Source of the DNA: an uncultured Bacilli bacterium
GTDB lineage: Bacteria; Bacillota_I; Bacilli_A; RFN20; CAG-826
NCBI GenBank assembly: GCA_934168325.1
Contig: CAKPNG010000004.1
Span: forward strand, 873 to 64,872
Direction: 5' to 3'
DNA length: 64,000 nt
A model generated the notes under the pieces. The model worked only from the letters and a program-made list of their open reading frames with translations, searched no databases and was not told where the DNA came from. The position numbers and the translations under genes were made by a program. This document shows positions 1 through 25,273 of this stretch, in pieces (position 1 is the stretch's first letter; the number at the start of each line of letters is the position of its first letter).

Positions 1-68
1 AAATTAACTATATTTGTTACTAGATTCTTTTCTAGAAAATTTGTTACTAAATCTAGCGCTAAAACTAT

Positions 69-103
69 GAAAAAAGATGCTTAATTATCTTTTTTTAGCA
101 TCT
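69..103 (-). terminator. Rho-independent terminator after the chorismate mutase gene
   Basis: On the minus strand, AGATGCT (97-103) pairs with AGCATCT (75-81) across a 15-nt loop and is followed by a T-run. It overlaps the stop codon. Confidence 0.5.
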
Positions 104-366
104 AAGATATCTTTTTGCATTTCTTTACTAGCTTTTAAAAAACCACTAAGAACATCTTTATAATATTTTTTATATTCATCTTTAGAGATTTTAGTTAAAT
201 TTTTATTGAGCATTTTTTCTTCTCTAGAAGAATCTAAAATTTCGATATTATTATCTAATTTATAATTAATAACTTCTTTTACTATTTCCATTCTTTTTTC
301 ATATAATTTGATTATTTCTTCATCAATTTGATCGATTTCATTTCTACATGATTCTAATTTAGTCAT
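85..366 (-). CDS. AroQ-type (CM_2) chorismate mutase, stand-alone 93 aa
   Basis: N-terminal RNEIDQIDEEIIKLYEKRMEIVKEVINYK plus DSSREEKML matches the classic R-x2-ID-x-ID...R...K / D-x-x-RE pattern of E. coli-type chorismate mutase domains. Confidence 0.75.
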   Translation of the reverse strand: MTKLESCRNEIDQIDEEIIKLYEKRMEIVKEVINYKLDNNIEILDSSREEKMLNKNLTKISKDEYKKYYKDVLSGFLKASKEMQKDILDAKKR

Positions 367-381
367 AATTATTTTTACTCC

Positions 382-1824
382 TTATAAAATTAATGTTCCT
401 AAAGGATAAGCTATTAATAAACATAAAATAATACTTATAACCATTAATATAGTTCCATAAATTAATGTATCTTTAGTTTCACAATATCCACTACTACTTA
501 TAATTGCAATATGTGGCATTGATGGAGGTGTTGCAAAAGCTAATGCAGACATCATTCCAATTACACATATTATCGATGGTAAATTTATAGAAGTTACTAT
601 GCTTCTTAATAAAGTAGCACAAACTGCACTTACTAAGGATGCAGTAACCATATTAGATGATAAATTAGTTTGAATTGCTGCCCAAGATACAAATATTATT
701 AGTAATAATATTGGGCTTACATTTATTAATGAATTTCCTAAACTATTTTGTAAGAATAATTTTATACCGATAATATCATCACTTAACACACTTCCAAGTG
801 TTAAAGTAGCAGCACACATTAATAAACTTCCCCAAGGAACGCCATTTTTAAAAGCATCATCTATTTTAATAATTGGTTTATTATCAAATCTTAATATACA
901 TAATAATATAGTTCCTAATATTGGAGGCATTGCTGTCCCATATCCATTTATTAATTTATAAAAATCAGGCGATATATCTTTAAATAAACTAGGTATTATC
1001 CATAATAAAATTACGATTATAAATATAACTAAAGTTGCTATATCTTTTTTGTCAATTGAAGGTATATCTTTCTTTATTTCTTCAATATTTATATCTTTTA
1101 ATTTAGAAGTATCTGGTCTAAGAAATACCCATAACATTATTAACATTAATATAAAGATTAATAATCCAGTTGGAATAGCTATAGCCATGTAATTTAATGG
1201 TGAAACTGTTATTTCAGCAGTATTCATAGCAATAATAGGAAAGACATGAGCAATTGGAGTCATACCTGAACTTATTGAACAAGTAAATCCTAGCCCAAGC
1301 ATTAATAATTTTCCAATTTTATCTCCTTTTTCTATCTTAGCTAGATTTAAAATTTCTTCTAATATTGGAAGCATTATTACAAATAAAACTGTCGGGGCAA
1401 TAAATTGTCCTAATAATAAAACTGATATTAAAAATAAATTACTAAACCAAAATCCACTTTTCTTTGATAATTTATTATTGACAAAGAAAATAGCTGTTCT
1501 TTTTATTAATGAGGTCTTACTTAAAGCGTACGTACATACAAATGTAAATAGTAAAAATACAAAAGTAGAATTCCCGAATCCTGAAGTAAAAACCTTGCTA
1601 AACCCATATGAATTTATAAAACCTAAAGAAAAAATACATAATACACTAGGCCAATCAATCCCTATTGTAAGCCATAAAATTAAGGTTCCAATAAATATAC
1701 AAATGACGCCAATTGCATCACTAGATAAAGCACTATTACCAGGAATAAATCTACCAAAAAAGCATAACAAAAGACATATTGGTATTATGATCCATCTAAA
1801 TATTTTATTATCTTTTAGTTTCAT
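382..1824 (-). CDS. Polytopic anion permease, ion-transporter superfamily (DASS/SLC13-like)
   Basis: 480 aa and hydrophobic throughout. It has the size and repeat organisation of DASS carriers, with a hairpin-tip-like TNLSSNMVTA motif. The start overlaps the upstream U32 stop (TAATG at 1822-1826). Confidence 0.5.
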   Translation of the reverse strand: MKLKDNKIFRWIIIPICLLLCFFGRFIPGNSALSSDAIGVICIFIGTLILWLTIGIDWPSVLCIFSLGFINSYGFSKVFTSGFGNSTFVFLLFTFVCTYALSKTSLIKRTAIFFVNNKLSKKSGFWFSNLFLISVLLLGQFIAPTVLFVIMLPILEEILNLAKIEKGDKIGKLLMLGLGFTCSISSGMTPIAHVFPIIAMNTAEITVSPLNYMAIAIPTGLLIFILMLIMLWVFLRPDTSKLKDINIEEIKKDIPSIDKKDIATLVIFIIVILLWIIPSLFKDISPDFYKLINGYGTAMPPILGTILLCILRFDNKPIIKIDDAFKNGVPWGSLLMCAATLTLGSVLSDDIIGIKLFLQNSLGNSLINVSPILLLIIFVSWAAIQTNLSSNMVTASLVSAVCATLLRSIVTSINLPSIICVIGMMSALAFATPPSMPHIAIISSSGYCETKDTLIYGTILMVISIILCLLIAYPLGTLIL

Positions 1825-3038
1825 TAATCTTTTTTCCTTCTTAAAATATCAAATGATTTAAGTCTTAAATTAGTTTTAATATATACTAATTCTTTTACTT
1901 TCTTTACTTCATCTAGTTTATTTCTATTTTGATCTAAAATCTCTTCAATTTTAATAGTTTTATTAAAATTATCATCATTAGATAAGACTTCTAAAGTGTC
2001 TCCAACCTTAAATTTATTTCTAAGTTCTACTAAACAATAATCGTCTTTATTATCTTCTTTTACTAAAGCAATAAAATCATAAGTTTGACTTAATTTAGAA
2101 CTAAATTTATTAGTTTTTTGATCACTATTAAAATAAAATCCTGTAGTAAAATCACGATTACTTGTCTTTCTTAATTCGTCAATATAATCAAAAGTTTTTT
2201 CCTTATTATTTATATAATTATCTATAGCTCTACGATAAGCATTTATAACAGTAGCAACATAATAAGTAGATTTCATTCTTCCTTCAATTTTAAAACTATT
2301 AATTCCGGCTTCAGATAATTCTTTAATATGTTCTATTAAACATAGATCTTTACTATTTAATATATAAGTTCCATGACTATCTTCTTCTATTGGATAATAT
2401 TCACTATCTTCATAATCTTCTTTATAACTTAACGCATAATTCCATCTACAAGGTTGAGCACAAGCACCTTTATTTGAATCTCTACCAGTAAAATAATTAG
2501 ATAATAAACATCTACCACTATAAGAAATGCACATTGCACCATGAGCAAAGCATTCAATATCGATATCTTTATCAATTTTATCTTTAATTTCTTTTATTTC
2601 TAATAATGATAATTCTCTAGCTAAAACTAATCTTTTAGCACCAAAATTAATCCACACATTAGCTGATTCAAAATTAGTAATATTAGCTTGAGTAGAAACA
2701 TGTAATTCTAAAGAAGTATATTTTTTAACTAAATGAGCTATTCCTAAATCACTAACAATTACTCCATCTGCTCCATTTTTATCTAAAAATTTTAAATAAT
2801 CTACTAATCCATTAAAATCATTATTATGAGCTAATATATTGACAGTAATATAAACCTTAACATTATGACTATGAGCATAATTTATTGATTCAACTATTTC
2901 ATTTTCATCAAAATTATCAGCAAAAGCTCTAAGTCCAAATCTTTTTCCTGCAAAGTAAACTGCATCTGCTCCAAAGTGTATAGCAGCTATTAATCTTTCT
3001 TTATCTCCTACTGGAGCAAGTAATTCAATTTTGTTCAT
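1824..3038 (-). CDS. Peptidase U32 family protein (TrhP/YegQ-like, putative Fe-S hydroxylase)
   Basis: N-terminal ELLAPVGD...GADAVYFAG..FGLRA, the IEGRMKS signature and the Cys cluster CISYSGRC-x15-CAQPC are all typical of U32. Confidence 0.8.
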   Translation of the reverse strand: MNKIELLAPVGDKERLIAAIHFGADAVYFAGKRFGLRAFADNFDENEIVESINYAHSHNVKVYITVNILAHNNDFNGLVDYLKFLDKNGADGVIVSDLGIAHLVKKYTSLELHVSTQANITNFESANVWINFGAKRLVLARELSLLEIKEIKDKIDKDIDIECFAHGAMCISYSGRCLLSNYFTGRDSNKGACAQPCRWNYALSYKEDYEDSEYYPIEEDSHGTYILNSKDLCLIEHIKELSEAGINSFKIEGRMKSTYYVATVINAYRRAIDNYINNKEKTFDYIDELRKTSNRDFTTGFYFNSDQKTNKFSSKLSQTYDFIALVKEDNKDDYCLVELRNKFKVGDTLEVLSNDDNFNKTIKIEEILDQNRNKLDEVKKVKELVYIKTNLRLKSFDILRRKKD

Positions 3039-3049
3039 ATAGTAATAAT

Positions 3050-3075
3050 ACTTTAAAGTAACTTAACTTTAAAGT
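3050..3075. promoter_or_regulatory. Two copies of the perfect 10-bp palindrome ACTTTAAAGT (candidate operator) in the divergent U32 control region
   Basis: ACTTTAAAGT occurs at 3050-3059 and 3066-3075, separated by AACTTA. Centre-to-centre spacing is 16 bp, within the 80-bp gap between the two U32 start codons. Confidence 0.45.
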
Positions 3076-3118
3076 TAATAAATACTAATTTTCATGATAA
3101 AATGAAAAAGTTGAAATT

Positions 3119-5392
3119 ATGAGTGAATTATTATCTCCATGTGGATCTATTGAATCGTTTTATAGCGCTATTAAGAGTGGTTGTAACGCTATTTATTTAG
3201 GTTTAAATAAATTTAGTGCTAGAGCCTACGCTAATAATTTTGATATTAGTGAAATGCCAGAATTAATTAAATTTGCTCATTTAAGAAATGTAAAAATTTA
3301 TATAACAATTAATACAATAATTTATGATGATGAATTAGATGAAGTTTATACTTTAATTGATAAATTAATTAATCTTAATATTGACGCTATAATTGTTCAA
3401 GATTTAACCTTAATTAATTATATTTCTAATAAATACGGAGTTAATAAAGTTCATGCTTCTACTCAAGTTGGAGTCGATAATTTTTATAGTGCTAAAGTTA
3501 TTAAAGAATTAGGTGCTAGTCGAATTGTATTAGCTAGAGAAACTCCTATTGAAGTTATTAAAGAAATTAAAAATAAATTAGATATAGAATTAGAAGTCTT
3601 TATTCATGGAGCGTTATGTGTATCTTATAGTGGTAATTGTTTAATGAGCTCAATGATTGGCAATCGTTCAGGTAATAGAGGTAGATGTGCTGGTTGTTGT
3701 AGACAAATATATTCTTTAATAAATAAAGATACTAATAAAATTATTAATAAAAGTTATATCTTATCAATGAAAGATTTAAATACTTCTTCTTTTATTAATA
3801 ATTTAAAATTTATTGATTCTTTAAAGATTGAAGGAAGAATGAAAGAGCCTGAATATACCTATGAAGTTACTAATATTTATCGTAATTTATTAGATAATAA
3901 AATAGTAGATACTAATAATTTAAATAAAATATTTAATAGAGAATACACTAAAGGTTTTTTATTTCATGATGAAATAAAAAATATTACTAATATTGATAAA
4001 CCTAATAATTTTGGTTATTTATTAGGGGAAATTTGTAAAATTAATAAGAATAAAGTTTGGATTAGATTATTTAATAAACAAAATTTAACTAAAGGTGATC
4101 AAATTAGAATTGATAATAGAGATATTAATAAAGAAATAAGTGTTCCAATTACTAAATTATTTGATGCTAATTTTAATTTAGTTAATGAAACTAATAAAAT
4201 AGGCATTATTTATTTAGATAAAAAAGTAAATATAGGTGATAAAGTTTATAAAGTTAAAGATATAAATTTAATAAATTCAATTGATGAAAAATTAAAAGAA
4301 AATAATAAAGAATATGAAAAATTACCTATAAATATTGAATTTAATGCCTTTATTAGTAAAAAAATAGTAATTAAATGCACTTATTTAGATTATAAAGTTG
4401 AAGTTATTAGTGATTTTATAGTAGATAAAGCAATAAAGCAAAATACAACTAAAGAAAATATTTATAATCAACTTAATAAATTAGGTGATACTCCTTATTT
4501 TATTAATAATCTAAATATTAATATCGATGATAATATATTCATTCCATTAAAATTAATTAATGAATTAAGAAGAGAATTAATAGATAAATTAAATATAGAA
4601 AGATTGAAATTTAAAATTACTACTAATAATATAGTTAATAATTTAAATATTAAAAAATATGAATTAAATATAGAACCTATTTTAACTGTTGAAGTATCTA
4701 ATTTAAAACAATATGAATTAGTTAAAAGTTTAGGTATTAAACATATTTATTTTAATAATATTATTAATAGAAATAATGCTACTTATATTAAAAATTATAA
4801 TAATTTTGATGAAATATTAGCTGGAAATATAGGTTCTATTGAATATTATAAAAATATAAATATTAATTTAATTAGTGATTATTCTTTTAATGTTACAAAT
4901 CACATTAGTGTCGCTATATTAAATAGTTTAGGTTTTAATAGAGTAACTTTATCTCAAGAAATTCCTTACAATTATATTAATAATTTAGTGTCTAATTATT
5001 ATAAAGAATATAATACTTATCCAAATTTAGAATTAATTATTTATGGTAGAACTTATTTAATGCATTCTAAATATTGTCCTTTAAAAAGATTAAATATGTG
5101 TGGAGATTGTAAGAAATATCAGTTTGAATTAAAAGATCGTTTTGCTACTTTTCCTATTAGATTTAATAATGATTGCACTATTAATATTTTAAATTCTAAG
5201 AGATTAAATAATATAAATTATATAAATAAAATCAATGGAGTTAATTATTTTAGATTAGTTTTTACTGACGAATCTAATGAAGAAATAATTAACATTATTA
5301 ATTCTTATAATGATACTATAAAAGGTAATGAAAATAATACGTTTAATAACGATTTAGATACCCATGGCCATTTTTTTGAAAAGCCTTTATAG
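3119..5392 (+). CDS. Long peptidase U32 family protein (RlhA/YdcP-like architecture with C-terminal extension)
   Basis: ELLSPCGS...CNAIYLG..FSARAYA, IEGRMKEPEY and the Cys cluster CVSYSGNC-x14-CAGCC. At 757 aa it has a second U32-like half near the C-terminus (CPLKRLNMCGDC). Confidence 0.75.
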   Translation: MSELLSPCGSIESFYSAIKSGCNAIYLGLNKFSARAYANNFDISEMPELIKFAHLRNVKIYITINTIIYDDELDEVYTLIDKLINLNIDAIIVQDLTLINYISNKYGVNKVHASTQVGVDNFYSAKVIKELGASRIVLARETPIEVIKEIKNKLDIELEVFIHGALCVSYSGNCLMSSMIGNRSGNRGRCAGCCRQIYSLINKDTNKIINKSYILSMKDLNTSSFINNLKFIDSLKIEGRMKEPEYTYEVTNIYRNLLDNKIVDTNNLNKIFNREYTKGFLFHDEIKNITNIDKPNNFGYLLGEICKINKNKVWIRLFNKQNLTKGDQIRIDNRDINKEISVPITKLFDANFNLVNETNKIGIIYLDKKVNIGDKVYKVKDINLINSIDEKLKENNKEYEKLPINIEFNAFISKKIVIKCTYLDYKVEVISDFIVDKAIKQNTTKENIYNQLNKLGDTPYFINNLNINIDDNIFIPLKLINELRRELIDKLNIERLKFKITTNNIVNNLNIKKYELNIEPILTVEVSNLKQYELVKSLGIKHIYFNNIINRNNATYIKNYNNFDEILAGNIGSIEYYKNININLISDYSFNVTNHISVAILNSLGFNRVTLSQEIPYNYINNLVSNYYKEYNTYPNLELIIYGRTYLMHSKYCPLKRLNMCGDCKKYQFELKDRFATFPIRFNNDCTINILNSKRLNNINYINKINGVNYFRLVFTDESNEEIINIINSYNDTIKGNENNTFNNDLDTHGHFFEKPL

Positions 5393-5517: not shown

Positions 5518-6339
5518 ATGAAAAAAGGAAAGAAATTAGCTTTATCATTATTGCTTCCTTTATTGATGTCAAATGCACCAATGCCTAGTCCTTATAGCCC
5601 AGAATTTGAAATTGATCGTGTTACAAATGAACACATTACTTTTGCATTAAATTCAGCTGGTGATGAATTAACATGTATATTTAAAAATTCACTAGATGGT
5701 ATTGTTGATTCTTTATTTTTAGAATGCTTAGATACTAATATAGCATTAATTAAAAGATATAATGGAACAACATTAATTCCTAAAAATTCTACCTATAAAT
5801 TTACTTTAAAAAACACCAAAGATTCAATTTATAATTTTGAACAAATTCAAAACTATGATAATTTAAAAATTTATGGTTCTTATTATAAAAGTGAAGATAT
5901 TTATACTGAACTTGACTTATCATATCGTTTTGAAGTTAATACTGACTTAGAAACAGGCAAAACAACCACTACTTGTTATACTAATATATATGTAGAAAAA
6001 GTTACTACTTTTATTTCTGATGCTCTATTTTATATAGCTGAAGATAATGTAACACCAAATAATACTTATTCTGCATATATTAGAGCATACAAAGATGAAA
6101 CAATAAATTATAAGGATTTTAAAATTACTTTTGATCGTGAATTAGCAAAAGACACTAAAATCAATTGTGTCTTATTAAAAGGAAACGATTATTATAATAG
6201 AAGACATGAGAAATCTGAAAGACAATTAAAAATATTATATATTTATTTATCAATTCTCGGTGTTACTGTTATTGGTACTATCATTTATCTTTCTATTTTT
6301 TACTATAGAAAACACAAAAGCAAACAAAAACTCAAATAA
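5518..6339 (+). CDS. Secreted/type-I membrane protein of unknown function
   Basis: RBS AAAGGAG lies 8 nt upstream. There is an N-terminal signal-like segment and a C-terminal TM helix followed by the basic tail YYRKHKSKQKLK. Confidence 0.55.
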   Translation: MKKGKKLALSLLLPLLMSNAPMPSPYSPEFEIDRVTNEHITFALNSAGDELTCIFKNSLDGIVDSLFLECLDTNIALIKRYNGTTLIPKNSTYKFTLKNTKDSIYNFEQIQNYDNLKIYGSYYKSEDIYTELDLSYRFEVNTDLETGKTTTTCYTNIYVEKVTTFISDALFYIAEDNVTPNNTYSAYIRAYKDETINYKDFKITFDRELAKDTKINCVLLKGNDYYNRRHEKSERQLKILYIYLSILGVTVIGTIIYLSIFYYRKHKSKQKLK

Positions 6340-6720
6340 ATATATAATTGATAAAATTAAGCATATTACAAAATAAGTGTTATTATTAGCACTTATTTTT
6401 ATTATGTAATTTAAAATTAATCCAACTACTAAAGATGCACTATTACTAATAAAAGATATGATTAAACATTTTAATATCGATCCATATAATTTTAAAATTT
6501 TTATAACTAGTGCTTCTAATAAAAAGACTATAATTTCGCCTACAATCAAAAACCATAATGCATTATTTGTTAAATATTCATAACACAAATTAAAGCTTAC
6601 ATTACTAATAACGTTCATTATTAATAAAATGATAAAATATAAAAAACTTTTTTTTAATAAAAAGAAATAGATAGGTGTTTCAATAACTAATGTTACTAAT
6701 AAGGGATAAATTAATTCCAT
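6250..6720 (-). CDS. Small polytopic membrane protein, unknown function
   Basis: 156 aa with 4-5 hydrophobic helices. No obvious SD. Its 3' end overlaps the convergent gene by 90 nt. Confidence 0.45.
   Translation of the reverse strand: MELIYPLLVTLVIETPIYFFLLKKSFLYFIILLIMNVISNVSFNLCYEYLTNNALWFLIVGEIIVFLLEALVIKILKLYGSILKCLIISFISNSASLVVGLILNYIIKISANNNTYFVICLILSIIYLFEFLFAFVFSIVKNRKINDSTNNSNTEN
6371..6400 (+). terminator. Hairpin terminator of the 5518-6339 gene, embedded in the convergent ORF
   Basis: AAAATAAGTG-(10 nt)-CACTTATTTT forms a perfect 10-bp stem followed by TTATT. Confidence 0.5.
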
Positions 6721-6730
6721 ATTTAATAAA

Positions 6731-6757
6731 AATAATGAGGTTCTGCAAGGTTATTTA
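6731..6757 (+). repeat. Copy B of the dispersed motif family
   Basis: AATAATGAGGTTCTGCAAGGTTATTTA. The 17-mer at 6740-6756 is identical to the reverse complement of 14725-14741. Copy B also matches 44050-44071 at 20 of 22 positions. Confidence 0.7.
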
Positions 6758-6865
6758 TAAAATAAGTAAGTTTTTGAAAGAAATTTTATCATTAAAAACT
6801 TTAATAGATTTAAAATAACTCTTATAAAAATATTATAAACCTAACAAATATTATTCTCACTCAAT

Positions 6866-6918
6866 AATTAGTTTCTAAATAAAAAAACTAATCAAATCTA
6901 TAATTTAGAAATAATTAG
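6866..6918 (-). terminator. AT-rich inverted repeat downstream of the lipoprotein cluster
   Basis: TTTCTAAAT (6872-6880) pairs with ATTTAGAAA (6903-6911), extended by flanking AATTAG/TAATTAG, with a 22-nt loop. Confidence 0.3.
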
Positions 6919-6939
6919 TCTTCTTAATTTTAATTTAAT

Positions 6940-7731
6940 TTAAGCTTTTTCACTATAATTACTAGGATTTAATTTAGTTCCACTATATTCCTTATAAGTA
7001 TCATAAGAATAATTAAATGTTGATTGAGAATAATTATAATTTGTATTATCCATTAAGCTATATAAAACAGTAGATTTACTTTTAATAATTTTATTATCTT
7101 TAATAGTTAAATAGTCTTCTCTTTCATATTTAACAGCAACAGTTTTACTACTATATTGTTCATATATTAAATATAATCTAACTTCTCCATCTTTTGATAA
7201 ATCGACATCATGATAATTATATTCAAATTTATATTTTATTGATTCATTTGAATCAATAAAATTCTTACATACATCATATCCACCACCAAGATAACTTCTA
7301 GAAAATCCAACACTTAGATTATCTTCACTATATTTTTCATCATAGTTAGCATATATAACATAATTATTAGGATCATCTTTACCATAATCTCTAATTAAAT
7401 AAAATTTATTATCTTTAATACCTACTTCTTCAGTACCACTTATTTTATCAGTTTCATAAGTTTGAATAAAATCAGCTTTAACAAAATTATCTTTATATCT
7501 AATTTTAGTATTATCTTCTTTTACTTTAACAGTTATTGCGCCATAATAATTTTCATCAGTTTGTGTACCTTCTTTTTTAGAGCAATCTTCACTTAAAGAT
7601 ATTAATTTATTTTTAAATTTAGTAATAAATTGATCTTCAGTTTCAACTGTTGGAGTATCTTTCTTATTACAAGAAACTAATAAATTAATAGATATTAAAG
7701 AAGTTAATAACAATAAATAATTATGTCTCAT
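6940..7731 (-). CDS. Lipoprotein, unknown function
   Basis: Signal peptide with lipobox LLVSC. I prefer the start at Met12 of the track ORF (ATG at 7731), which has GAGG 9 nt upstream and lies 4 nt after the upstream stop. Confidence 0.65.
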   Translation of the reverse strand: MRHNYLLLLTSLISINLLVSCNKKDTPTVETEDQFITKFKNKLISLSEDCSKKEGTQTDENYYGAITVKVKEDNTKIRYKDNFVKADFIQTYETDKISGTEEVGIKDNKFYLIRDYGKDDPNNYVIYANYDEKYSEDNLSVGFSRSYLGGGYDVCKNFIDSNESIKYKFEYNYHDVDLSKDGEVRLYLIYEQYSSKTVAVKYEREDYLTIKDNKIIKSKSTVLYSLMDNTNYNYSQSTFNYSYDTYKEYSGTKLNPSNYSEKA

Positions 7732-7735
7732 TTTA

Positions 7736-9574
7736 TTAAGCCTCAATTTTAAATCTATGGACATAATCAGTTAAATTAACACTTAAAGTAATTAATTCAC
7801 CATCTAAAGTAATTTCTCCTTCAGTATATCCATAGCTTGGATTATCTGAAGTTATAGCAATATTAAATTTAGTTCCACTCATATTATAAGTAAATGTAGT
7901 AGTACTTATTAAAGAATTATCTTCTCTATTATAATATTCAATAGTTCCATTAGTTTTACTACTAAATTTCATAACACCATCAAAAGCACTATATATACTC
8001 TTATATCTATAAGTACTACTTAATACCTTGTTAGCTAATTCTTCTTCAGTTAATTTAATTTTAATAGTATAAGTAACACTTACTTTAATTTCAGGATTAG
8101 TTTCACTATAAAAAGTAATCACTAAATCTTTACTTTCTTTAATATCATTAACATCTAATTGATAATTTATATATCCTTTGCCTTCTTCAACTTTTTTAAT
8201 AGTAGCTAAAGAATCATCGCTTAATTTAGCTTTTATAGCGCTATAATCAACACCATTTACATTAGGAAATACATTAACTCTTAAATTCTTATAAGTAGTT
8301 TTAGTAAATATAACTTTATTCTTTTCTCCACTAATAGCTCCACTATAAGTATCAGTAAATGTCAATTTAGTTAATTTAGGTCTAGCTACTTTAACACTGA
8401 TATTAAAACTAATTCCACTATTACTTTCTAAAACTATATTAGCATCACCAAAGTCTTTAGCATATAAGGCATCACCACTTAATTCATAACTAGTCTCATT
8501 ATCTATAGATTTAACATTCATTGTTAAATCTATTGCTTTACTAGGACTATATGTTTTAGCTTCAAATTTAATATATTTTTCTATTGGTAAAGCATCAAAT
8601 TCACAATATACTTTCTTACCATTATCATAATAATATGCACTAACTTCTTTAACTTCAGTTAAATAATAATTCATTAGATCAGGACGAGCTTCGTTTAATG
8701 TAGTTGAACTAATTCTATCTTCATAACTAACTTCATAACTATAATTAACATTAACTTCATATTTATCATTATCACTTCTAGTTTCACCAGTATAACTAGA
8801 ATAATTACTACTAATAAATCTACCTTCATTATCAAAATTAACTTCAAAAGAATAACTAATCTTAATATTTATACCTTCTTCTGTATAACTATAAGAATAA
8901 TCAGTTAATGAATAAGTAACAAAATTATTATCTTTAATAACTTTTTTAGCTTTAATATTAGCTCCACTAGCATTTAAATCGATATTATTAACTAAATTAG
9001 CATTAATAAAATTAGATGTATATAAACTAGCTTGTTTAGATAATTGACTAGGAACACTTTTTTCAAGTAAATAACTTATTCCATCTTCACTATCTTTACC
9101 ATTATTATAAACAGGTAATTGATAAGAAGAATCGACCCAAGTAGAAGATTCTATTCCATTTTTTTCATAATCAGTAATTAAAAAGAACGCTCTAAAAGTA
9201 TCAGTAGAAGATTCACTATTTTTATAAGTAGCAACAGTAGCAAATTTTAAATAATTATCACTAATAGTTTTATTTTCTTTTTTATAAGTTAAACTTCTAA
9301 ATCCATTAGATATAGTCATCTCATCATTATAAATAATTGTTTCTTCATTAATAATTTCTTTAGAAGATGTTTTATCTGTTTCTTCTTTATATTTAACTTT
9401 ATTAGAAGTACTAACTTCTATTTCATAAGCACTACTTAATTTATTAATAACTTCATCTAAAGCTACTAAAGTTTCTTTATCATCACCATTATTATTTTCA
9501 TTATTATTACAAGAAAATAATGAAATAGAAATTAAACTCATTACTGGTAAAATTATTGCTCTTTTTAAATTCAT
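7736..9574 (-). CDS. Lipoprotein with Ig-like (BIG2-type) domains and a C-terminal beta-rich domain
   Basis: RBS GAGGAGG and lipobox SLFSC. It shares its domain order with the 727-aa neighbour. Confidence 0.65.
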   Translation of the reverse strand: MNLKRAIILPVMSLISISLFSCNNNENNNGDDKETLVALDEVINKLSSAYEIEVSTSNKVKYKEETDKTSSKEIINEETIIYNDEMTISNGFRSLTYKKENKTISDNYLKFATVATYKNSESSTDTFRAFFLITDYEKNGIESSTWVDSSYQLPVYNNGKDSEDGISYLLEKSVPSQLSKQASLYTSNFINANLVNNIDLNASGANIKAKKVIKDNNFVTYSLTDYSYSYTEEGINIKISYSFEVNFDNEGRFISSNYSSYTGETRSDNDKYEVNVNYSYEVSYEDRISSTTLNEARPDLMNYYLTEVKEVSAYYYDNGKKVYCEFDALPIEKYIKFEAKTYSPSKAIDLTMNVKSIDNETSYELSGDALYAKDFGDANIVLESNSGISFNISVKVARPKLTKLTFTDTYSGAISGEKNKVIFTKTTYKNLRVNVFPNVNGVDYSAIKAKLSDDSLATIKKVEEGKGYINYQLDVNDIKESKDLVITFYSETNPEIKVSVTYTIKIKLTEEELANKVLSSTYRYKSIYSAFDGVMKFSSKTNGTIEYYNREDNSLISTTTFTYNMSGTKFNIAITSDNPSYGYTEGEITLDGELITLSVNLTDYVHRFKIEA

Positions 9575-9594
9575 AAATCCTCCTCTTATTTAGC

Positions 9595-9622
9595 CAAAAG
9601 ACACGAATAAATCGTGCCTTTT
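9595..9622 (-). terminator. Stem-loop between the 727-aa and 612-aa lipoprotein genes
   Basis: On the minus strand, AAAAGGCACGA-(5 nt)-TCGTGTCTTTT forms a stem with one G-U pair, and the U-run ends the stem. Confidence 0.4.
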
Positions 9623-9654
9623 AGTTTAACATATTTTCTTAATTAAAATCGACA

Positions 9655-11838
9655 TTAACTTGGCTTAGTTGCAGTATCAAGATTTGCAATTCTATCCATG
9701 TATTTAATAGTACAACCATTGTTATTAGAATTAAGCATGAATTTTAATGATAATGTTGTATCGCTAGTTGCTTGAACATCTGTTATCTTATAAGAATTAA
9801 CACTTAATTCATTACCTTTGTCAGGAGTAATGGTAAATGTAAAATCATCATTTATTACATATTTAAATGTAGCTTGAGGATATCTACTTGGATTTGGTTT
9901 AGTACTTTGAGTTGCTATATATGCACCAGAGCCATCTGCATTAAAGTTAATCCAACCACAATCAGTTGTCCATTTATCGCTTTGAACGAAAATTGTATGG
10001 GTAGTTAAAAAGGTTTTAAGATTTTCTAAATTTGGTTTATGGCTAAAAGTAACATCAATTATCTTATTTTTGCTTTCATCAACATTACTTGTTGCCTTTA
10101 TTGTGACAGATCCTACAGCAGTAGGCGTTACATAATAGCCATCTTCTTTCTTTTCTAGTGTAGCAAATTCTGTACCTTTAGTAATTTCTACAGTTACATC
10201 TTGAGAAGCTAAACTTGGTAAAATATTTGCATTAACTTTTTGAGCACCATCTTCAATAAAGAAATTCGTTCCGCCTTTTCCTAAAGTTAAAGTCATTTCA
10301 TTAATAACTGGGGCTTCAGCAGTTACTTTAACTTCCTTCATATCTCCTTTACCATTGTCGAACAATAAAGTAAGATCGCCTAATTTATTTACTGTAAATG
10401 TTTTGTCTTTTTCATTATAAACTAATCCATCTTTTTCGACTGATCCTACAAGTTGTGGTTCAACTAGTGGTGATCCTTTAACATTACTTAAATAAGGATA
10501 TAAAGTCGAATTTCCGACAACAACATTATCTTCACCAACATCATATTTTTTATATTCTTTATATTTTATATATTGTAAATTTACATCATACTCTGTTGCA
10601 AATAATCCATCAAAATCTAAATCACATTCACCTTGATTTTTATCAGCTGCACGATTATAGGTTAATTCAAAATTATATTCAGTATAGCCAAACTCAGCAT
10701 CATCTTTTATAACTTTATTTGCTTTATCCAAGCCACTCTTATAGTAATCATTTTTAAACGATAATGAATGTAAGAAGTTATCTCCATCAATGCTGAATTT
10801 CAATGTATAAAGATGACAAGAAGTATTGTAATCACTTGTGCTAGTAATACCACTCATTTCAACAGTATATGTTTTACCATCTTCAGCTAACGTAGGCTCA
10901 CCTACTTTAACTGTTTCAGGAATCATGGTAGAAGAATAAAAAACTCTATCATTATTTTCGCCAAATGCTGTATTAACAATAGTCTCTAAGTATCCAGCAG
11001 ATTGTGTATAAGAAATTGCTTCTTCTTCAGACATTGAGCCAATGCCATTATAAACCTCGCCCTCTTTCAAAATTTTATTGGTAGTTACTGTAGTACTAGT
11101 TGTAGGCCCTGAAGAAGGTGAATTATCACCAAATCTATTTGTACGTTGATTATAATTAAACGTATAAGCATCACCCGGTACAAAGCCTCTCGTAGTAGTT
11201 TCTCTACTAAATCCATTAGCACCATCTGCACTTGTCCGACTATCTAAAGTTACAAAATTATTATAAACTTTAGCCTCGTTAACTTGATGAGTTTTAGCTG
11301 AACCAGTATCAGTATCATAAGTTAAAGTAGCGCTCTTTAATTTTTCTACTTCAACTTCAGTAGCCATACGAAGTTGCATTGCTGCCCAATCTAATTTTTC
11401 AGCTAATTCACCATCTTTATTAAATTCAAGAGCTTCTAAGTCAACCGGAGTAACTACATCTTCTGGCTCAACATATGGAGCATCTTTTTCAGCTACTTTA
11501 ATAGCAACATTACTTTCTGGCATCGTAAAAGTAAAATGGGTATCAGTTTGGACTGGCATTATTTCTTTTAAACCATCATAATAAACTTTTACATAATCTA
11601 GAACAAAATCTGCACTATCGCTTACAACATCAAAAGTAACAGAAAATCCTGCTTCTACTTTGTCAGTAACATTTAAGTTTTGCACTTTCAAATGAGTTGC
11701 ATTTAATGTTTCGACTGCATATTTTGCTGGCTCTGGTTCTGGTGCTGGTGGGCAAACTTCATTACCACAACTAGTTAAGCCACCAAAAGTCATAAAGGAC
11801 GTTGCTAATAACGTTAAAAATAAATTTCTTTTTCTCAT
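9655..11838 (-). CDS. Lipoprotein with a BIG2-like domain, paralogous in architecture to 7736-9574
   Basis: Lipobox GLTSC followed by PAPEPEPA linker. It is visibly richer in G+C and in A/G/V/T residues than its neighbours. Confidence 0.65.
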   Translation of the reverse strand: MRKRNLFLTLLATSFMTFGGLTSCGNEVCPPAPEPEPAKYAVETLNATHLKVQNLNVTDKVEAGFSVTFDVVSDSADFVLDYVKVYYDGLKEIMPVQTDTHFTFTMPESNVAIKVAEKDAPYVEPEDVVTPVDLEALEFNKDGELAEKLDWAAMQLRMATEVEVEKLKSATLTYDTDTGSAKTHQVNEAKVYNNFVTLDSRTSADGANGFSRETTTRGFVPGDAYTFNYNQRTNRFGDNSPSSGPTTSTTVTTNKILKEGEVYNGIGSMSEEEAISYTQSAGYLETIVNTAFGENNDRVFYSSTMIPETVKVGEPTLAEDGKTYTVEMSGITSTSDYNTSCHLYTLKFSIDGDNFLHSLSFKNDYYKSGLDKANKVIKDDAEFGYTEYNFELTYNRAADKNQGECDLDFDGLFATEYDVNLQYIKYKEYKKYDVGEDNVVVGNSTLYPYLSNVKGSPLVEPQLVGSVEKDGLVYNEKDKTFTVNKLGDLTLLFDNGKGDMKEVKVTAEAPVINEMTLTLGKGGTNFFIEDGAQKVNANILPSLASQDVTVEITKGTEFATLEKKEDGYYVTPTAVGSVTIKATSNVDESKNKIIDVTFSHKPNLENLKTFLTTHTIFVQSDKWTTDCGWINFNADGSGAYIATQSTKPNPSRYPQATFKYVINDDFTFTITPDKGNELSVNSYKITDVQATSDTTLSLKFMLNSNNNGCTIKYMDRIANLDTATKPS

Positions 11839-12032
11839 AAATCCCCCTTAAAAGTAATCAATTGTCAATCTTTGATAACTTGTTAACTATTTTATATTGT
11901 TTATTCATCTTTTTTTGATTTATTTTTATCGTTAATATTGTATTAATAAAATTTAAAAAACCTTGATAAAATCATTTATATTTATATTTTTTAATAATAA
12001 ATATGACCTTAAATAATGCTATTTTTAAAATT

Positions 12033-13991
12033 TTAAGCAATACTAACAGTTAAAATACAATAATATCCGTAATAATCAACCAAATTTAAATTAACATTTA
12101 TATTATTGAATTTATAATTATTTTCATCTATTTTTGTATAATTTGCTTTAATTAAATCATTTATATAATTATTTATATTTTCTTTAACAATAGTTTCAGT
12201 TGCATCTTCATCAAATTTAATAAATATTGATAAAGATTTTTCATCTATACTACTTGGATCTAAAGAAATATCTAAAGTATTCTTAAAGAAAGGTAAATTA
12301 TAATCTTTTCCTAATAAATTAATTAAAGCTTTATCAATTTCTTCATCATAATCTTTCCAACTATTAAAATCAGTAAAAACATATTGAGTATTTTTTACTT
12401 CATAAAATAATGAATATTTTTTACTCATCTCTTCATAAACTATTGATAAATTTACTTTATAATGATTAGATTCATTTATATATGTATATATTTTATTTTC
12501 ATTATCTAAAAAAGTTAATTTATATCCTTTATTAATAAATAAATTTCTATAATCATTTAATATATTATTAACTACATCAATATCGCTAATTAAATCAGTA
12601 AAAATTGTAATTAATCCAGTCTTTATATTTAACGTATAATCATAAGTTATTCCATCTAAATAAGGTAAAAAATTAACGTCAATCAATACTTTATTAAATT
12701 CATCTTTATAACAATTATTATATTCATAAAACCCTTCTAAAGGTGTATATTTTGTTGCGTTTTCAGTATCAACATTCATTATTGTATTATTTAAATCTTT
12801 AAATATATATGTCAATTCACCATTTAATAATCCTAATAAAGAATATTCTAAATGAAGTTCTAAATTATTATCTTTATTAAATAATAAATATACACTTCCA
12901 TCAATAGCATTTTGTCCTTTATAATCACTTATTACTTCTTTAGTAAAATCATTACTTATTCCATAAGGTAAATAATATTTATTATCTATTTTAGTAAATA
13001 TTGCACAAGAAAAATTAAATTTAGGTTCATCTATTTTAATTCCTTTATAAAATCTTTTCACTTCTTTAACATTATTCGATGAATCTATATCATAATATGA
13101 CATTGTATTATCGTTATTATATTTATAAAAAGATTTTATAATTATTTCATTATTATCATCATCAAAATCAATCTCTTCACTATAATAACTATCTTTATTA
13201 TATTTATATAATGATTTTAATATAATTTCCCCATTATACATTGAATCTATTACTTCTACTGTATAATTATTATTAGTCTTTATATTATTAAAAAAGTCTT
13301 CTAATTCTGGATATTTATTATCTAATTTAGTAATTACTCTGACATTATTTTTATTAATATCACTAACTTTTAAATAATATTCACTCATTACTTTAACACT
13401 ATTTATTTCATATTCATTAGATACAATTTGAATTGTATCTAATGTATTATCTTTAAAATTAAATATTATCTTATTAACATCTAAATCATCATAAGTAATA
13501 TGATATACTAAATCATTTTTATATTTACCAACATATTCATAACTATTATTACCATCTTTTTTAAAATCTAATTTATTATTAATATAAGTAATAAAAGGAC
13601 TTACTAAAAAAGAATCTTTATATAAAACTAATTCATCATTATAGTCATAAACTAATTTATGATCTACTTCATTATTAATAGTTAAATAATCTTCATTAAC
13701 ATGTCCATTATCATCTTTAGAATAAAAATATTCATAATTAACAAAATTATCTTTATTATCATAAGATTTATAATACGCTTTATCTAATCCAATACTAGTA
13801 ATACATTGATATTCAATTACTTCATTAGATTCTAATAATGTAATTGTATTATATCCAGTATATGTAATAGAAGTAATCTTCTCTTCAAGTAATTTATCGA
13901 TTGGATCAATATTATTTGCTTCTTCTTTACATGAACTTAATACACTAGATAAGCTAATAATAAGTGAATATAAAATAAATTTAGTCTTCAT
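12033..13991 (-). CDS. Lipoprotein, N/K/Y-rich, with C-terminal alpha/beta repeat modules
   Basis: Lipobox VLSSC. C-terminal modules such as YRNLFINKGYKLTF... and YINDLIKANYTKID... resemble the repeats in 31059-33305. Confidence 0.6.
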   Translation of the reverse strand: MKTKFILYSLIISLSSVLSSCKEEANNIDPIDKLLEEKITSITYTGYNTITLLESNEVIEYQCITSIGLDKAYYKSYDNKDNFVNYEYFYSKDDNGHVNEDYLTINNEVDHKLVYDYNDELVLYKDSFLVSPFITYINNKLDFKKDGNNSYEYVGKYKNDLVYHITYDDLDVNKIIFNFKDNTLDTIQIVSNEYEINSVKVMSEYYLKVSDINKNNVRVITKLDNKYPELEDFFNNIKTNNNYTVEVIDSMYNGEIILKSLYKYNKDSYYSEEIDFDDDNNEIIIKSFYKYNNDNTMSYYDIDSSNNVKEVKRFYKGIKIDEPKFNFSCAIFTKIDNKYYLPYGISNDFTKEVISDYKGQNAIDGSVYLLFNKDNNLELHLEYSLLGLLNGELTYIFKDLNNTIMNVDTENATKYTPLEGFYEYNNCYKDEFNKVLIDVNFLPYLDGITYDYTLNIKTGLITIFTDLISDIDVVNNILNDYRNLFINKGYKLTFLDNENKIYTYINESNHYKVNLSIVYEEMSKKYSLFYEVKNTQYVFTDFNSWKDYDEEIDKALINLLGKDYNLPFFKNTLDISLDPSSIDEKSLSIFIKFDEDATETIVKENINNYINDLIKANYTKIDENNYKFNNINVNLNLVDYYGYYCILTVSIA

Positions 13992-14939: not shown

Positions 14940-16643
14940 TTATTTATTTCCTTTATCTAATTCAATAATTTCTTTTTTATATTTATTAACTTCTTCGGTA
15001 TTAGCTAAAATGAAATGTCCTGGAACAATTTCAACTAATTTAGGTTTTTCAACACTATAATCATGTTCTTTACTTGGATCATAAATTATACGTTTTCTAT
15101 TTTTTTCCGAAATTGGATTTGGTTTAGGAATTGCACTTAATAAGCTCTTAGTATATGGATGAAGTGGATGTTTAAATAATTCATCACTACTAGCAAGTTC
15201 AACAATTTCACCAAAATACATAACAGCAATACGGTCGCAGAAATATTTAACAACACTTAAATCGTGAGCGATAAACATAATTGTTAAGCCCATTTCTTCT
15301 TTTAAATCATTAAGTAGATTAATAATTTGAGCTCTAATTGAAACATCTAAAGCACTAATTGGTTCATCGCAAATCAATAAACGTGGATTCATAATTAAAG
15401 CACGAGCAATACCAATTCTTTGACGTTGACCACCACTAAATTCATGTGGATAACGGTTAGCGTAATCAGCAATTAAACCAACTTTTTCTAATACTTCGAC
15501 AACTTTCTTATGGTTTTCTTCTCTATTACGATGTCCTTGAATTTTTAAACCTTCTTGAATAATATCTTCAACAGTCATTCTAGGATCTAAAGAGTCGATT
15601 GGATCTTGGAAAATCATTTGAATTTCACTCATAACTTTCTTGTTATCTTTCTTTAATGGCTCTAAGATTTTATTGATTTCTAGAATCTTTTTATCTCTAG
15701 TTTCAACTAGTTCTGCCATTTTTTGATTATGAGTTTCTTCATCTAAATTTGATTTATCTAATTCTAAAGAATTCTTCTTAAATTCTTCATTAATATCTTT
15801 TAATTTAGATTTTAAAATCTTAATTTTATCACCATTATTAGTTAATTTAGGAGCATTCTTTTGATCGTATTTAATTTGCTTAATTTTAGCTTTTTGAACA
15901 CGAACAATTTCATTACGTTTTGCTTCTTCTTTTTCTAAATTAAGCATTAAAACACTTTCTTTAGCTAAATAAGCATTTTCTAAATTAGTTTTATATTCAT
16001 CTAATTGATGTTTAACTTCTTCCTCAGTTATTTTACCTTCTCCTAAAGAAGTTTTTAATTCTTTAGCTTTAAGAGTATAAGCATCTTTATTAGCTTTTCT
16101 AAGTGTAGCAAGTTCTTTTTTAATACTCTTTTTATATTCATTAAATCTAATATTAGTAAATTTAATTTCTTTTTCATTCCATCTACTACCAGCGCTAATT
16201 CTATAGCCATTATAATAAACAGAACCACTAGTTATATCATAAAGTCTAATAATACTACGACCAGTTGTTGTTTTACCACATCCTGATTCACCAACAACAC
16301 CAAAACATTCTCCTTCTTTTATTTGGAAAGAAATGTCGTGGACTGCTTTAATCTTATATTTTTTAGGTCCTTTCCCAAAGAAAAAGAATTGTTTAAGGTG
16401 ATTTACACTTAATAAAACATGATTTTGTACTAATTCTTCTTTATAAGTACATTTACTAGTAATATTTTTAATTTGTTCTTCTAAAGGAAGTTCACTTAAA
16501 GGGTTAATTTCACTATCACTAGGTGGTACATGTTCACTATATTCATTAGAAGAATCAATTCTATTTTCATCTAAAACATCTGCTGTTTCTTGAATAGCTT
16601 TGCCTTCATCGGTGTTAGATATAGGATTTTTATTCTCCTTCAT
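14940..16643 (-). CDS. oppF: Oligopeptide ABC transporter ATPase OppF with an N-terminal acidic extension and a ~185-aa K/E-rich insertion
   Basis: Walker A GESGCGKTTTG, Q-loop IQMIFQDP, signature FSGGQRQR, Walker B LLICDEP and the C-terminal oligopeptide-ATPase tail HPYT. Confidence 0.85.
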   Translation of the reverse strand: MKENKNPISNTDEGKAIQETADVLDENRIDSSNEYSEHVPPSDSEINPLSELPLEEQIKNITSKCTYKEELVQNHVLLSVNHLKQFFFFGKGPKKYKIKAVHDISFQIKEGECFGVVGESGCGKTTTGRSIIRLYDITSGSVYYNGYRISAGSRWNEKEIKFTNIRFNEYKKSIKKELATLRKANKDAYTLKAKELKTSLGEGKITEEEVKHQLDEYKTNLENAYLAKESVLMLNLEKEEAKRNEIVRVQKAKIKQIKYDQKNAPKLTNNGDKIKILKSKLKDINEEFKKNSLELDKSNLDEETHNQKMAELVETRDKKILEINKILEPLKKDNKKVMSEIQMIFQDPIDSLDPRMTVEDIIQEGLKIQGHRNREENHKKVVEVLEKVGLIADYANRYPHEFSGGQRQRIGIARALIMNPRLLICDEPISALDVSIRAQIINLLNDLKEEMGLTIMFIAHDLSVVKYFCDRIAVMYFGEIVELASSDELFKHPLHPYTKSLLSAIPKPNPISEKNRKRIIYDPSKEHDYSVEKPKLVEIVPGHFILANTEEVNKYKKEIIELDKGNK

Positions 16644-20638: not shown

Positions 20639-20640
20639 AA

Positions 20641-24664: not shown

Positions 24665-24726
24665 AATTCTTACCTCCTTTAATATAAAATAAACAAAAAT
24701 ATTACATTCTATTTATGCTTTGTAAA

Positions 24727-24747
24727 TATATAACTTTTTAAGTTATA
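24727..24747. promoter_or_regulatory. Perfect palindrome in the oppA leader
   Basis: ATATAACTT-TTT-AAGTTATAT lies about 60 nt upstream of the oppA ATG. Confidence 0.35.
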
Positions 24748-24802
24748 TTTTTAATAATGAAATATCTATTAATGAAAAATTAATAAATATTCAATAGTAT
24801 TG

Positions 24803-24811
24803 ATTATACCA
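24803..24811 (-). promoter_or_regulatory. Extended -10 promoter element for oppA
   Basis: The minus strand reads TGGTATAAT (TGn + TATAAT), about 140 nt upstream of the oppA start. Confidence 0.4.
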
Positions 24812-24819
24812 CACTTTTT

Positions 24820-25206: not shown

Positions 25207-25228
25207 TTTTTTAATTTTTAATAACAAT

Positions 25229-25250
25229 AAGGAGCTCAAACGAGCTCCTT
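25229..25250 (-). terminator. Terminator hairpin after the S8 protease gene
   Basis: AAGGAGCTC-(4 nt)-GAGCTCCTT forms a perfect 9-bp GC-containing stem. Confidence 0.55.
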
Positions 25251-25273
25251 AATTATAACTTAATTTAAACTAA

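Follow-up and report, generated by a model that had tools for sequence, protein, structure and literature searches.

A conserved U32-permease-chorismate mutase operon in genome-reduced gut Bacilli and its possible role in supplying prephenate for RNA hydroxylation

The DNA considered here is a 64-kb stretch (the window) from an anaerobic, genome-reduced member of the gut Bacilli of the RFN20/RF39 type. Its open reading frame list places a chorismate mutase (CM), a putative anion permease and two proteins of the U32 family side by side near one end, in the following arrangement:

1..84, plus strand: 3' end of a convergent SDR-like gene (258 aa); the translation of this piece ends in a stop
85..366, minus strand: stand-alone AroQ-class chorismate mutase, 93 aa, matching PF01817 and TIGR01805
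382..1824, minus strand: divergent DASS-fold anion permease, 480 aa, with Na_sulph_symp and CitMHS matches
1824..3038, minus strand: TrhP-like U32 Fe-S protein (the short U32), 404 aa, with U32 and U32_C domains
3039..3118, no strand assigned: control region, 80 bp, with promoter-like sites in both directions
3119..5392, plus strand: RlhA-type U32 protein (the long U32), 757 aa, with a U32 domain, DUF3656 and, towards the C-terminus, another U32 stretch that is degenerate

The U32-permease-CM trio is a tightly packed operon in which the short U32 gene comes first and CM last. This layout had been described in the original prediction, whose coordinates and lengths exactly matched the reading frames, with the exception of a terminator. 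At the proposed TAATG junction the stop of the short U32 gene and the start of the permease gene share one base, and the claimed 15-nt gap between permease and CM is confirmed, with an AAGGAG Shine-Dalgarno sequence inside it, 9 nt upstream of the CM ATG. The terminator thought to follow CM did not survive scrutiny, as the scanner predicts none there and the candidate hairpin does not outdo shuffled controls in folding (z = -0.9). The operon ends at the stop of the convergent SDR-like gene, which finishes at base 84 next to the CM stop at 85, leaving zero intergenic space; the translated 1..84 piece matches the C-terminus of a 258-aa reading frame at a locus from the same species (L001). The short and long U32 genes diverge, as proposed, from the 80-bp intergenic region, which carries promoter-like sites on the minus strand (3073..3045, TTTAAA-17-TATTAT) and on the plus strand (3075..3103, TTAATA-17-TAAAAT preceded by TG). 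Two ACTTTAAAGT palindromes lie at 3050..3059 and 3066..3075, a motif also conserved across many genera in the region ahead of the short U32 gene, and no Rfam match was found in the control region.

Profile searches bore out the families originally proposed for all four proteins. CM passes the cut-offs of both CM_2 (PF01817; 67 bits, E = 1.7e-18, cut-off 27) and the NCBIfam model TIGR01805 (86.5 bits, cut-off 71.2), the latter marking it as an ordinary Gram-positive monofunctional biosynthetic type, and scores 28.8 bits against the isochorismate lyase model, for which the cut-off is 126. In alignment, R8, R25, K36, D45, R48, E49, S80 and Q84 fall on R11, R28, K39, D48, R51, E52, S84 and Q88 of EcCM, such that the full set of catalytic residues is intact, and the product predicted for an AroQ chorismate mutase of this type is prephenate, made from chorismate. 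The short U32 contains Peptidase_U32 (PF01136; 320.5 bits) and U32_C (PF16325; 64.5 bits) and is 36% identical to E. coli TrhP over its full length. Its best NCBIfam family is TrhP (NF011996; 346.6 bits, below the equivalog cut-off of 534), with UbiU at 180 bits. The long U32 combines two stretches of PF01136 (270 bits) with DUF3656 (PF12392; 84.8 bits), a pairing reported to be unique to the RlhA subfamily, and a second C-terminal U32 motif is found in about half of RlhA1 homologues (PMC5727448). Its best E. coli match is RlhA, with 30% identity over 513 aa and 221 bits vs 144 bits for TrhP. Both U32 proteins keep the four-cysteine cluster ascribed to them, CX6CX15CX3C, at C170/177/193/197 in the short U32, positions identical to those of E. 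coli TrhP, and at C167/174/190/194 in the long U32.

The permease is a divergent DASS-type protein. Na_sulph_symp (PF00939; 79.2 bits, above the Pfam gathering threshold) and CitMHS (62 bits) both match as originally claimed, the NCBIfam model TIGR00785 stays below its cut-off (127.3 bits, cut-off 198.6), and the best solved relative is VcINDY (residues 37-471, E = 9e-15; E = 1.4e-23 in the profile search). The protein does not fall in a characterised arsenite or citrate carrier clade, an outcome that would have told against the original proposal. Its subfamily is small (192 clusters at E < 1e-30) and is a DASS group without any characterised member. The two Ser-Asn-Thr motifs at the hairpin tips, which bind Na+ and carboxylate, are not intact: the first reads A-P-T in the window protein and S-P-T in the subfamily consensus, and the second S-N-M in the window protein and S-N-M/I in the subfamily. 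Asn is lost from the first of these motifs and from both PPN motifs, and His193 is invariant across the subfamily. Given the lost Asn residues, canonical Na+ coupling may be absent from this permease.

Linkage to U32 genes in relatives had been chosen beforehand as a point on which the proposal could fail, and the U32-permease-CM order was found at each of the 38 related loci with flanking sequence on the U32 side, which come from uncultured gut Bacilli/"Mollicutes" MAGs. The gap from U32 to permease in these 38 loci runs from -26 to +9 nt, and that from permease to CM is 2 to 30 nt in 39 of 40 loci. From genus to genus the trio is kept but its flanking genes are entirely different, and the long U32 gene divergently adjoins it in most relatives, not all. 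Chance falls far short of explaining an arrangement that turns up wherever a related locus has sufficient flank. Part of this conservation is explained by common descent, since all trio loci fall in a single permease clade; the permease clade at identities of at least 59% is monophyletic and CM-linked in every member. Permease and CM also pair without a U32 gene in a basal member (L042) and on three separate sister branches (L050, L085 and L066), and the pair looks like the core unit. With CM genes taken to occur at roughly 1 in 2000 genes, four independent adjacencies of this kind indicate a substrate/product relationship. Most sister-clade permeases (41-48% identity) adjoin a PF12831 FAD oxidoreductase, with no CM nearby, and from these neighbours the family substrate may be something other than chorismate. 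Our literature searches returned no description of the U32-permease-CM cluster, in keeping with the earlier statement that no such three-part module was known to have been described.

The link between prephenate and U32 enzymes on which the original prediction drew is supported in the literature, with TrhP, RlhA and UbiU/V all requiring prephenate (PMC6599085, PMC5727448, PMC10990095). Prephenate is the oxygen donor of UbiUV (PMC10990095); for U32 enzymes at large, this donor role was deduced from genetic work in E. coli and from isotope labelling for UbiUV. The prephenate dependence of tRNA U34 hydroxylation by the TrhP family is established (PMC6599085); reviews note that direct evidence of donation is still missing for the RNA hydroxylases. 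We consider the chances to be about even that this operon imports chorismate and turns it into prephenate, which then donates the oxygen when tRNA and rRNA are hydroxylated, a reading in which we infer the substrate and direction of import, the RNA targets and the lack of chorismate synthesis in this genome. The DASS-fold permease would take up chorismate that other microbes nearby release (prephenate is a possible, less likely, substrate) and the co-translated AroQ mutase would convert this to prephenate, which would then donate an oxygen atom to two [4Fe-4S] U32 enzymes. The TrhP-like operon protein would probably take tRNA U34 to ho5U, and the divergently encoded RlhA-like protein 23S rRNA C2501 to ho5C. 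We count in favour of prephenate supply the close packing and conserved order of the trio, the recurrence of the permease-CM pair, the intact CM residues, the cysteine motifs in both U32 proteins and the SUF Fe-S assembly operon present in the 64-kb window. Counting against it are the position of the short U32 below the TrhP cut-off and the lack of a visible TrhP2 (YrrN-type) partner, no third U32 gene being found in the window or the related loci; TrhP1 and TrhP2 always co-occur among the Firmicutes surveyed. Chorismate is also labile, which weighs against its import. The earlier prephenate-supply interpretation is partly supported, through its protein families, the linkage conserved in relatives and its literature basis, and has lost its terminator.

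Gene inventories of relatives lend this interpretation further support. No AroB, AroK, AroA, AroC, AroF, prephenate dehydratase or prephenate dehydrogenase domains were found in the window and 106 loci (1.05 Mb in total). In a reduced gut lineage (lineage 1, n = 99), U32 (COG0826) occurs in 98% of genomes, AroC in 13%, AroA in 9%, AroK in 8%, prephenate dehydratase in 4% and prephenate dehydrogenase in 9%; in a second (n = 21), U32 occurs in 52%, AroC in 19-24% and AroA in 5-10%, with AroB and AroK absent (PMC7301438 supplement). Most U32-bearing genomes in that table are unable to make chorismate and are without the Phe/Tyr enzymes that consume prephenate. KEGG orthologues of CM (4-14%) and COG0471 (at most 3%) are also infrequent in the gut-lineage genomes (PMC7301438 supplement); annotation may be missing these genes, or else only a subset of genomes, perhaps the aro-positive ones, has the trio. 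Also counting against the interpretation, related genomes carry aro genes in about 10-20% of cases (PMC7301438 supplement), and a hint of remaining 'chorismate' capacity in RF39/UBA660 is given in one paper. It is conceivable, if unlikely, that CM serves what remains of aromatic amino-acid metabolism, feeding Phe/Tyr from endogenous or imported chorismate, while the permease carries an ordinary di-/tricarboxylate or other anion and the U32 adjacency is an inherited order without function. The ordinary biosynthetic type of CM, the retained aro genes and the partial explanation of conservation by ancestry within one permease clade would all fit. Such an account sits poorly, however, with the persistence of an overlapping or near-abutting trio amid reshuffled flanks, with the rarity of prephenate dehydratase and dehydrogenase in lineage 1 and their absence, with that of aro genes, from every neighbourhood, and with the independent recurrence of the permease-CM pairing outside the trio clade.

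The sub-threshold TrhP score of the short U32, together with its 180 bits on UbiU, leads to a different proposal, namely that this protein is a small-molecule hydroxylase in the style of UbiU/V, acting on an aromatic acid brought in by the permease, with CM turning endogenous chorismate into the oxygen donor. Of the 12 U32 subfamilies, the majority have yet to be characterised (PMC5727448), and the FAD oxidoreductases beside sister permeases resemble organic-acid metabolism. We nevertheless regard this as distinctly improbable: TrhP is the best match over the full length, with identical cysteine positions and the U32_C domain typical of TrhP/TrhP1; endogenous chorismate is beyond most related genomes; and the permease-CM pair occurs without any adjacent U32.

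Transport might also run outwards, the permease exporting a phenylpyruvate by-product, possibly swapped for chorismate or prephenate. Some DASS members are exchangers, the motif Asn losses leave room for a departure from canonical Na+ coupling, and the mechanism proposed in the literature for prephenate-dependent hydroxylation releases phenylpyruvate. A pure exporter would, however, leave the source of chorismate in aro-less genomes unexplained, and phenylpyruvate is a monocarboxylate that could simply be transaminated to Phe, so we rate this as very unlikely.

Returning to chorismate import as the source of prephenate, we know of no DASS protein that transports chorismate and of no bacterial chorismate or prephenate transporter described to date, and none turned up in literature searches. 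We tentatively suggest, as a plausible rather than a probable extension, that the permease subfamily is the first known bacterial chorismate importer, and that gut anaerobes without a shikimate pathway cross-feed on chorismate purely as an oxygen-atom donor, via prephenate, for tRNA/rRNA hydroxylation and not for amino acids. If true, prephenate acts like a vitamin-type cofactor in these bacteria, and a specific cross-feeding dependency of this kind could help to explain the uncultured state of RF39/RFN20 bacteria. A conserved operon of CM and a TrhP-like U32, in lineages mostly without the shikimate pathway or other prephenate consumers, lends independent comparative-genomic support to prephenate donor chemistry and offers a naturally occurring setting where prephenate may have no second role, while the permease is a concrete, clonable candidate for a chorismate/prephenate transporter.

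Compared with known systems, the short U32 shares U32 and U32_C with E. coli TrhP (YegQ) and with B. subtilis TrhP1/TrhP2 (YrrO/YrrN), but differs from the yrrM-yrrN-yrrO setting in having no TrhP2 partner or trmR methyltransferase gene nearby and in having a permease and CM as neighbours. The long U32 has the U32 and DUF3656 pairing of E. coli RlhA (YdcP), the 23S rRNA ho5C2501 synthase, although it is longer (757 aa vs 653 aa), only 30% identical, and encoded divergently from a CM-containing operon, whereas E. coli draws prephenate from PheA and TyrA. With UbiT-UbiU-UbiV of anaerobic ubiquinone hydroxylation the locus has in common the enzyme family, the Fe-S motif and the co-substrate logic (PMC10990095). 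That system works on a lipid quinone precursor with the SCP2 carrier UbiT, neither of which is expected in this organism, and no UbiT-like gene was seen at the examined loci. The permease aligns over its full length with VcINDY of the DASS family (TC 2.A.47; Na+-coupled di-/tricarboxylate or sulfate transporters) and has the same repeat and hairpin architecture, but with altered motifs and a score under the NCBIfam cut-off. Finally, among bacterial importers of shikimate-pathway intermediates, the only well-known one is ShiA, the E. coli shikimate:H+ symporter. It is an MFS protein carrying a monocarboxylate upstream of chorismate, whose use needs AroK/L, AroA and AroC, none of which was seen at the examined loci, yet its salvage logic is comparable to that proposed here for chorismate import.

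The short U32 gene, the permease gene and the chorismate mutase (CM) gene form a tightly packed, co-directional trio, with the long U32 gene transcribed divergently from it. The window has a G+C content of ~25% and is read with the standard bacterial code, and the four open reading frames of this locus lie exactly where the original prediction had placed them.

Genes of the U32 locus and its convergent neighbour (window coordinates)
1..84, + strand: 3' end of an SDR-like gene (258 aa in the related locus L001), whose stop abuts the CM stop (85..87)
85..366, - strand: ORF, CM, 93 aa
382..1824, - strand: ORF, permease, 480-aa membrane protein
1824..3038, - strand: ORF, short U32 protein, 404 aa
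3119..5392, + strand: ORF, long U32 protein, 757 aa

The packing of these genes also agrees with what had been claimed. The stop of the short U32 gene and the start of the permease gene have one base in common within a TAATG junction, where a GAAGGA ribosome-binding sequence lies upstream of the permease start; permease and CM genes are separated by 15 nt containing AAGGAG, and the region between the two U32 genes is 80 bp long. The predicted terminator after CM did not hold up: none was called by the scanner, and we rejected an intrinsic terminator 3' of CM because the candidate hairpin gains no stability over shuffled sequence (z = -0.9) and the convergent gene abuts. This junction has neither an intergenic spacer nor a recognisable terminator and, with the two stops abutting, the operon ends against the SDR-like gene instead.

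Within the 80-bp divergent region, promoter-like sites face both ways. Window 3045..3076 contains two copies of a 10-bp palindrome, ACTTTAAAGT, with a centre-to-centre distance of 16 bp, and these overlap the -35/-10 elements of the operon promoter. Many genera conserve the same palindrome ahead of the short U32 gene; among the related loci, gathered with the permease as anchor, it occurs in L001, L002, L005, L007, L009, L011, L012, L016, L018, L022, L041 and L043. The arrangement suggests a putative operator at which a repressor might act. About 7 nt separate the end of the minus-strand -10 element (TATTAT) from the ATG of the short U32 gene, and this start lacks a Shine-Dalgarno sequence; together these features suggest that the operon transcript may be leaderless. 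A riboswitch or T-box in this region was rejected, given that Rfam and ARAGORN returned no RNA element.

Profile searches bore out the predicted CM, U32 and Na_sulph_symp family assignments, and sequence matches in Pfam and the PDB are enough to fix the folds. The 93-aa protein is predicted to be a monofunctional AroQ CM: it matches CM_2 (E = 1.7e-18), passes the TIGR01805 cut-off (86.5 against 71.2 bits) and has aligned counterparts of all the catalytic residues of the E. coli enzyme. A tblastn search with it against plasmids returned distant CMs only. The short U32 protein comprises the Peptidase_U32 and U32 C-terminal domains and has TrhP as its top curated family (346.6 bits, below the equivalog cut-off of 534, compared with 180 bits for UbiU); its full-length identity to E. 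coli TrhP is 36%, with cysteines 170/177/193/197 at the E. coli TrhP positions. The long U32 protein combines U32 with DUF3656, a pairing reported only for RlhA, and carries a further, weak U32 stretch at its C-terminus like that found in about half of RlhA homologues (PMC5727448). Among E. coli proteins it matches RlhA best (30% identity over 513 residues). Both proteins keep the four-cysteine cluster, as had been noted, in the form of the CX6CX15CX3C motif of Fe-S "U32 oxidases". With this motif in both and the RlhA-specific DUF3656 in one, we set aside the earlier view of U32 as a peptidase/collagenase. The short U32 protein might conceivably hydroxylate a small molecule, namely an anion imported by the permease, but its architecture is TrhP-like and such a role would require endogenous chorismate; we regard this as quite unlikely and favour RNA as the target.

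The permease is best described as a DASS-fold protein, albeit an atypical one by its sequence. It scores 79 bits against Na_sulph_symp and 127 bits against the NCBIfam DASS model, short of the 198.6-bit cut-off, and aligns with VcINDY over its full length. Its two Ser-Asn-Thr motifs are altered, the first to A-P-T (the subfamily consensus being S-P-T) and the second to S-N-M; the Asn is lost from both PPN motifs, and members of the subfamily share an invariant His193. When 1.84 billion representative proteins were searched exhaustively, only 192 clusters reached E < 1e-30, making this a small subfamily, and it has no characterised member in the libraries searched. The altered cation-site motifs would fit an exporter or exchanger of the by-product phenylpyruvate, but this would leave the source of chorismate unexplained, and we think it very unlikely. 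An importer is the reading that we prefer.

Conserved linkage in relatives had been named as a check on the module, and the U32-permease-CM order does recur. Using the permease as anchor we gathered 20 loci from a genome collection and 80 from a metagenome collection, the latter scanned with a 12-sequence permease alignment (a 51-sequence alignment was too diverse), and added more through exact-protein look-ups. CM lies directly downstream in every flanked locus with a permease sharing at least 59% identity with that of the window, and a TrhP-like U32 gene lies directly upstream of the permease in all 38 loci with a U32-side flank, the exception being L042. Spacing is similarly tight, with U32-to-permease gaps of -26 to +9 nt and permease-to-CM gaps of 2 to 30 nt in 39 of 40 loci. 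The genes around the trio are wholly different from genus to genus, so the trio has been maintained as a unit through rearrangement. An RlhA-like gene divergently adjoins it in most loci, and several have none in the flank. Trio-bearing assemblies include JALEXS01, UQXJ01, DBFJOT01, CALVHN01 and the FR898169 set of Clostridium sp. CAG:288, together with a 1.25-Mb contig. Proteins closely related to the permease are encoded in metagenome-assembled genomes titled Mollicutes bacterium, Bacilli bacterium, Candidatus Onthovivens, Clostridium sp. CAG:288 and Candidatus Alectryobacillus (GTDB order RFN20); the hosts belong to the gut Bacilli commonly known as RF39/RFN20, which are uncultured and have reduced genomes.

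A neighbour-joining tree of permeases recovers the trio clade as monophyletic. The basal member of this clade, L042 (1633..3436), carries the permease-CM pair only and lacks a U32 gene in its 1.7 kb of upstream sequence. This suggests that a U32 gene joined a pre-existing pair. A U32 gene within 5 kb is seen in none of the 65 sister-clade loci (permease 41-48% identity). In three separate sister branches the permease nevertheless has a genuine CM_2 gene as a neighbour, ordered permease-CM-EamA in L050, CM-permease-DAO in L085 and FAD_oxidored-permease-DUF6198-CM in L066. Since only about one gene in 2000 encodes a CM, its presence beside the permease on four independent occasions is an argument for the permease transporting the substrate or product of the mutase. 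Were prephenate imported the mutase would be redundant, which leaves chorismate as the simplest candidate for the cargo. A caveat on the substrate range of the family comes from 27 sister loci in which the permease (32-45% identity) is paired with a PF12831 FAD-dependent oxidoreductase (~426 aa), often together with a LysR regulator (L049, L051, L053-L055, L061, L066, L072-L074, L084, L090, L094-L111; also L031); these clusters may represent a second pathway using chorismate or prephenate.

The original prediction had noted no other aromatic-amino-acid gene adjacent, and this extends to the rest of the 64-kb window, which holds no aromatic-pathway gene. When E. coli AroB, AroK, AroA, AroC, AroF, PheA and TyrA were searched by tblastn against the window and 106 loci (1.05 Mb), only the CM domain was recovered. 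Gene frequencies for the host group are available from the supplementary table of Wang et al. 2020, covering gut lineage 1 (n=99) and gut lineage 2 (n=21), which have been equated with RFN20 and RF39 (PMC7301438). In gut lineages 1 and 2, respectively, U32 (COG0826) occurs in 98% and 52% of genomes, chorismate synthase in 13% and 19-24%, EPSP synthase in 9% and 5-10%, shikimate kinase in 8% and 0, 3-dehydroquinate synthase (AroB) in 12% and 0, prephenate dehydratase in 4% and 29% (COG0077), and prephenate dehydrogenase in 9% and 0-5% (PMC7301438). The majority of U32-bearing genomes in both lineages would therefore be unable to make chorismate, and few genomes of gut lineage 1 have any prephenate-consuming enzyme besides U32. 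It is in just such a situation that salvage would be useful. That the CM instead serves what is left of a Phe/Tyr pathway, next to an unrelated permease, is an unlikely explanation, given that the downstream enzymes are absent from the window and the 106 loci and that the permease-CM pairing recurs. Against the salvage reading, aro genes do occur in 10-20% of gut-lineage genomes, KEGG calls CM in only 4-14% (PMC7301438) and there is a hint from one study that RF39/UBA660 retain some "chorismate" capacity, so the trio-bearing genomes could in principle be an aro-positive minority.

Formation of ho5U34 by TrhP (PMC6599085) and of ho5C2501 by RlhA (PMC5727448) both need prephenate, and 18O labelling has identified prephenate as the oxygen donor of UbiU/V, with the same predicted by those authors for the RNA enzymes (PMC10990095). 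In the model that we favour, the permease would import chorismate, the AroQ CM would convert it to prephenate, and the TrhP-like and divergently encoded RlhA-like enzymes would use this for O2-independent RNA hydroxylation, their Fe-S clusters being assembled by SUF proteins encoded 40 kb away. What we observe at the locus is its gene families, motifs, packing and conservation; transport direction and substrate, RNA targets and a lack of endogenous chorismate are inferred. We give the whole chain about an even chance; the CM-to-U32 link alone seems somewhat more likely than this, and the chorismate-import step alone somewhat less so.

Elsewhere the window encodes surface proteins, an Opp transporter, the SUF Fe-S operon, mnmG, rsmG, parAB, ffh, ftsY, rnc and plsX; as to a phage or mobile-element origin, the neighbours are housekeeping genes and the Pfam annotation gives no sign of a mobile element. 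Five consecutive ORFs at 5518..13991 (273, 274, 612, 727 and 652 aa) are probably lineage-specific surface proteins, judging by lipoprotein-like or signal-like N-termini in several; four of the five have no Pfam match and the 727-aa ORF has a sub-threshold GldM_3rd match only. The components of an Opp-type oligopeptide ABC transporter at 14940..21675(-) are unusually long: its two ATPases have 567 and 665 aa, and a 672-aa permease has large insertions. The block at 21797..37692(-) encodes giant surface proteins with Big_2 domains and BspA-type LRR_5 repeats, including a 1351-aa S8 subtilase with a PA domain, and would suit bacteria that attach to a host or to particles and scavenge peptides. 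At 37822..46661(-), parB, parA, rsmG and mnmG, a cluster of origin-proximal style, are followed directly by a complete SUF operon (sufB, sufU, sufS, sufD, sufC); MnmG is another tRNA U34-modifying enzyme. The GC skew changes sign at ~46-50 kb, where two ORFs of 646 and 649 aa (46808..48748(+) and 48684..50633(+), with TTG and GTG starts) have no Pfam matches. A choloylglycine (bile-salt) hydrolase family protein at 54824..55798(-) (PF02275, E = 7e-95) is a marker of gut adaptation.

The original prediction that such a module had not been described is in line with our search of the literature on U32/prephenate/CM and TrhP/RlhA, which contained neither a U32-permease-CM cluster nor a chorismate or prephenate importer. 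The trhP genes of B. subtilis adjoin a trmR methyltransferase gene and no CM, whereas the short U32 gene of the window adjoins permease and CM genes. Since all of its parts come from known families, the U32-permease-CM cluster is new as a functional module but does not amount to a new kind of system.
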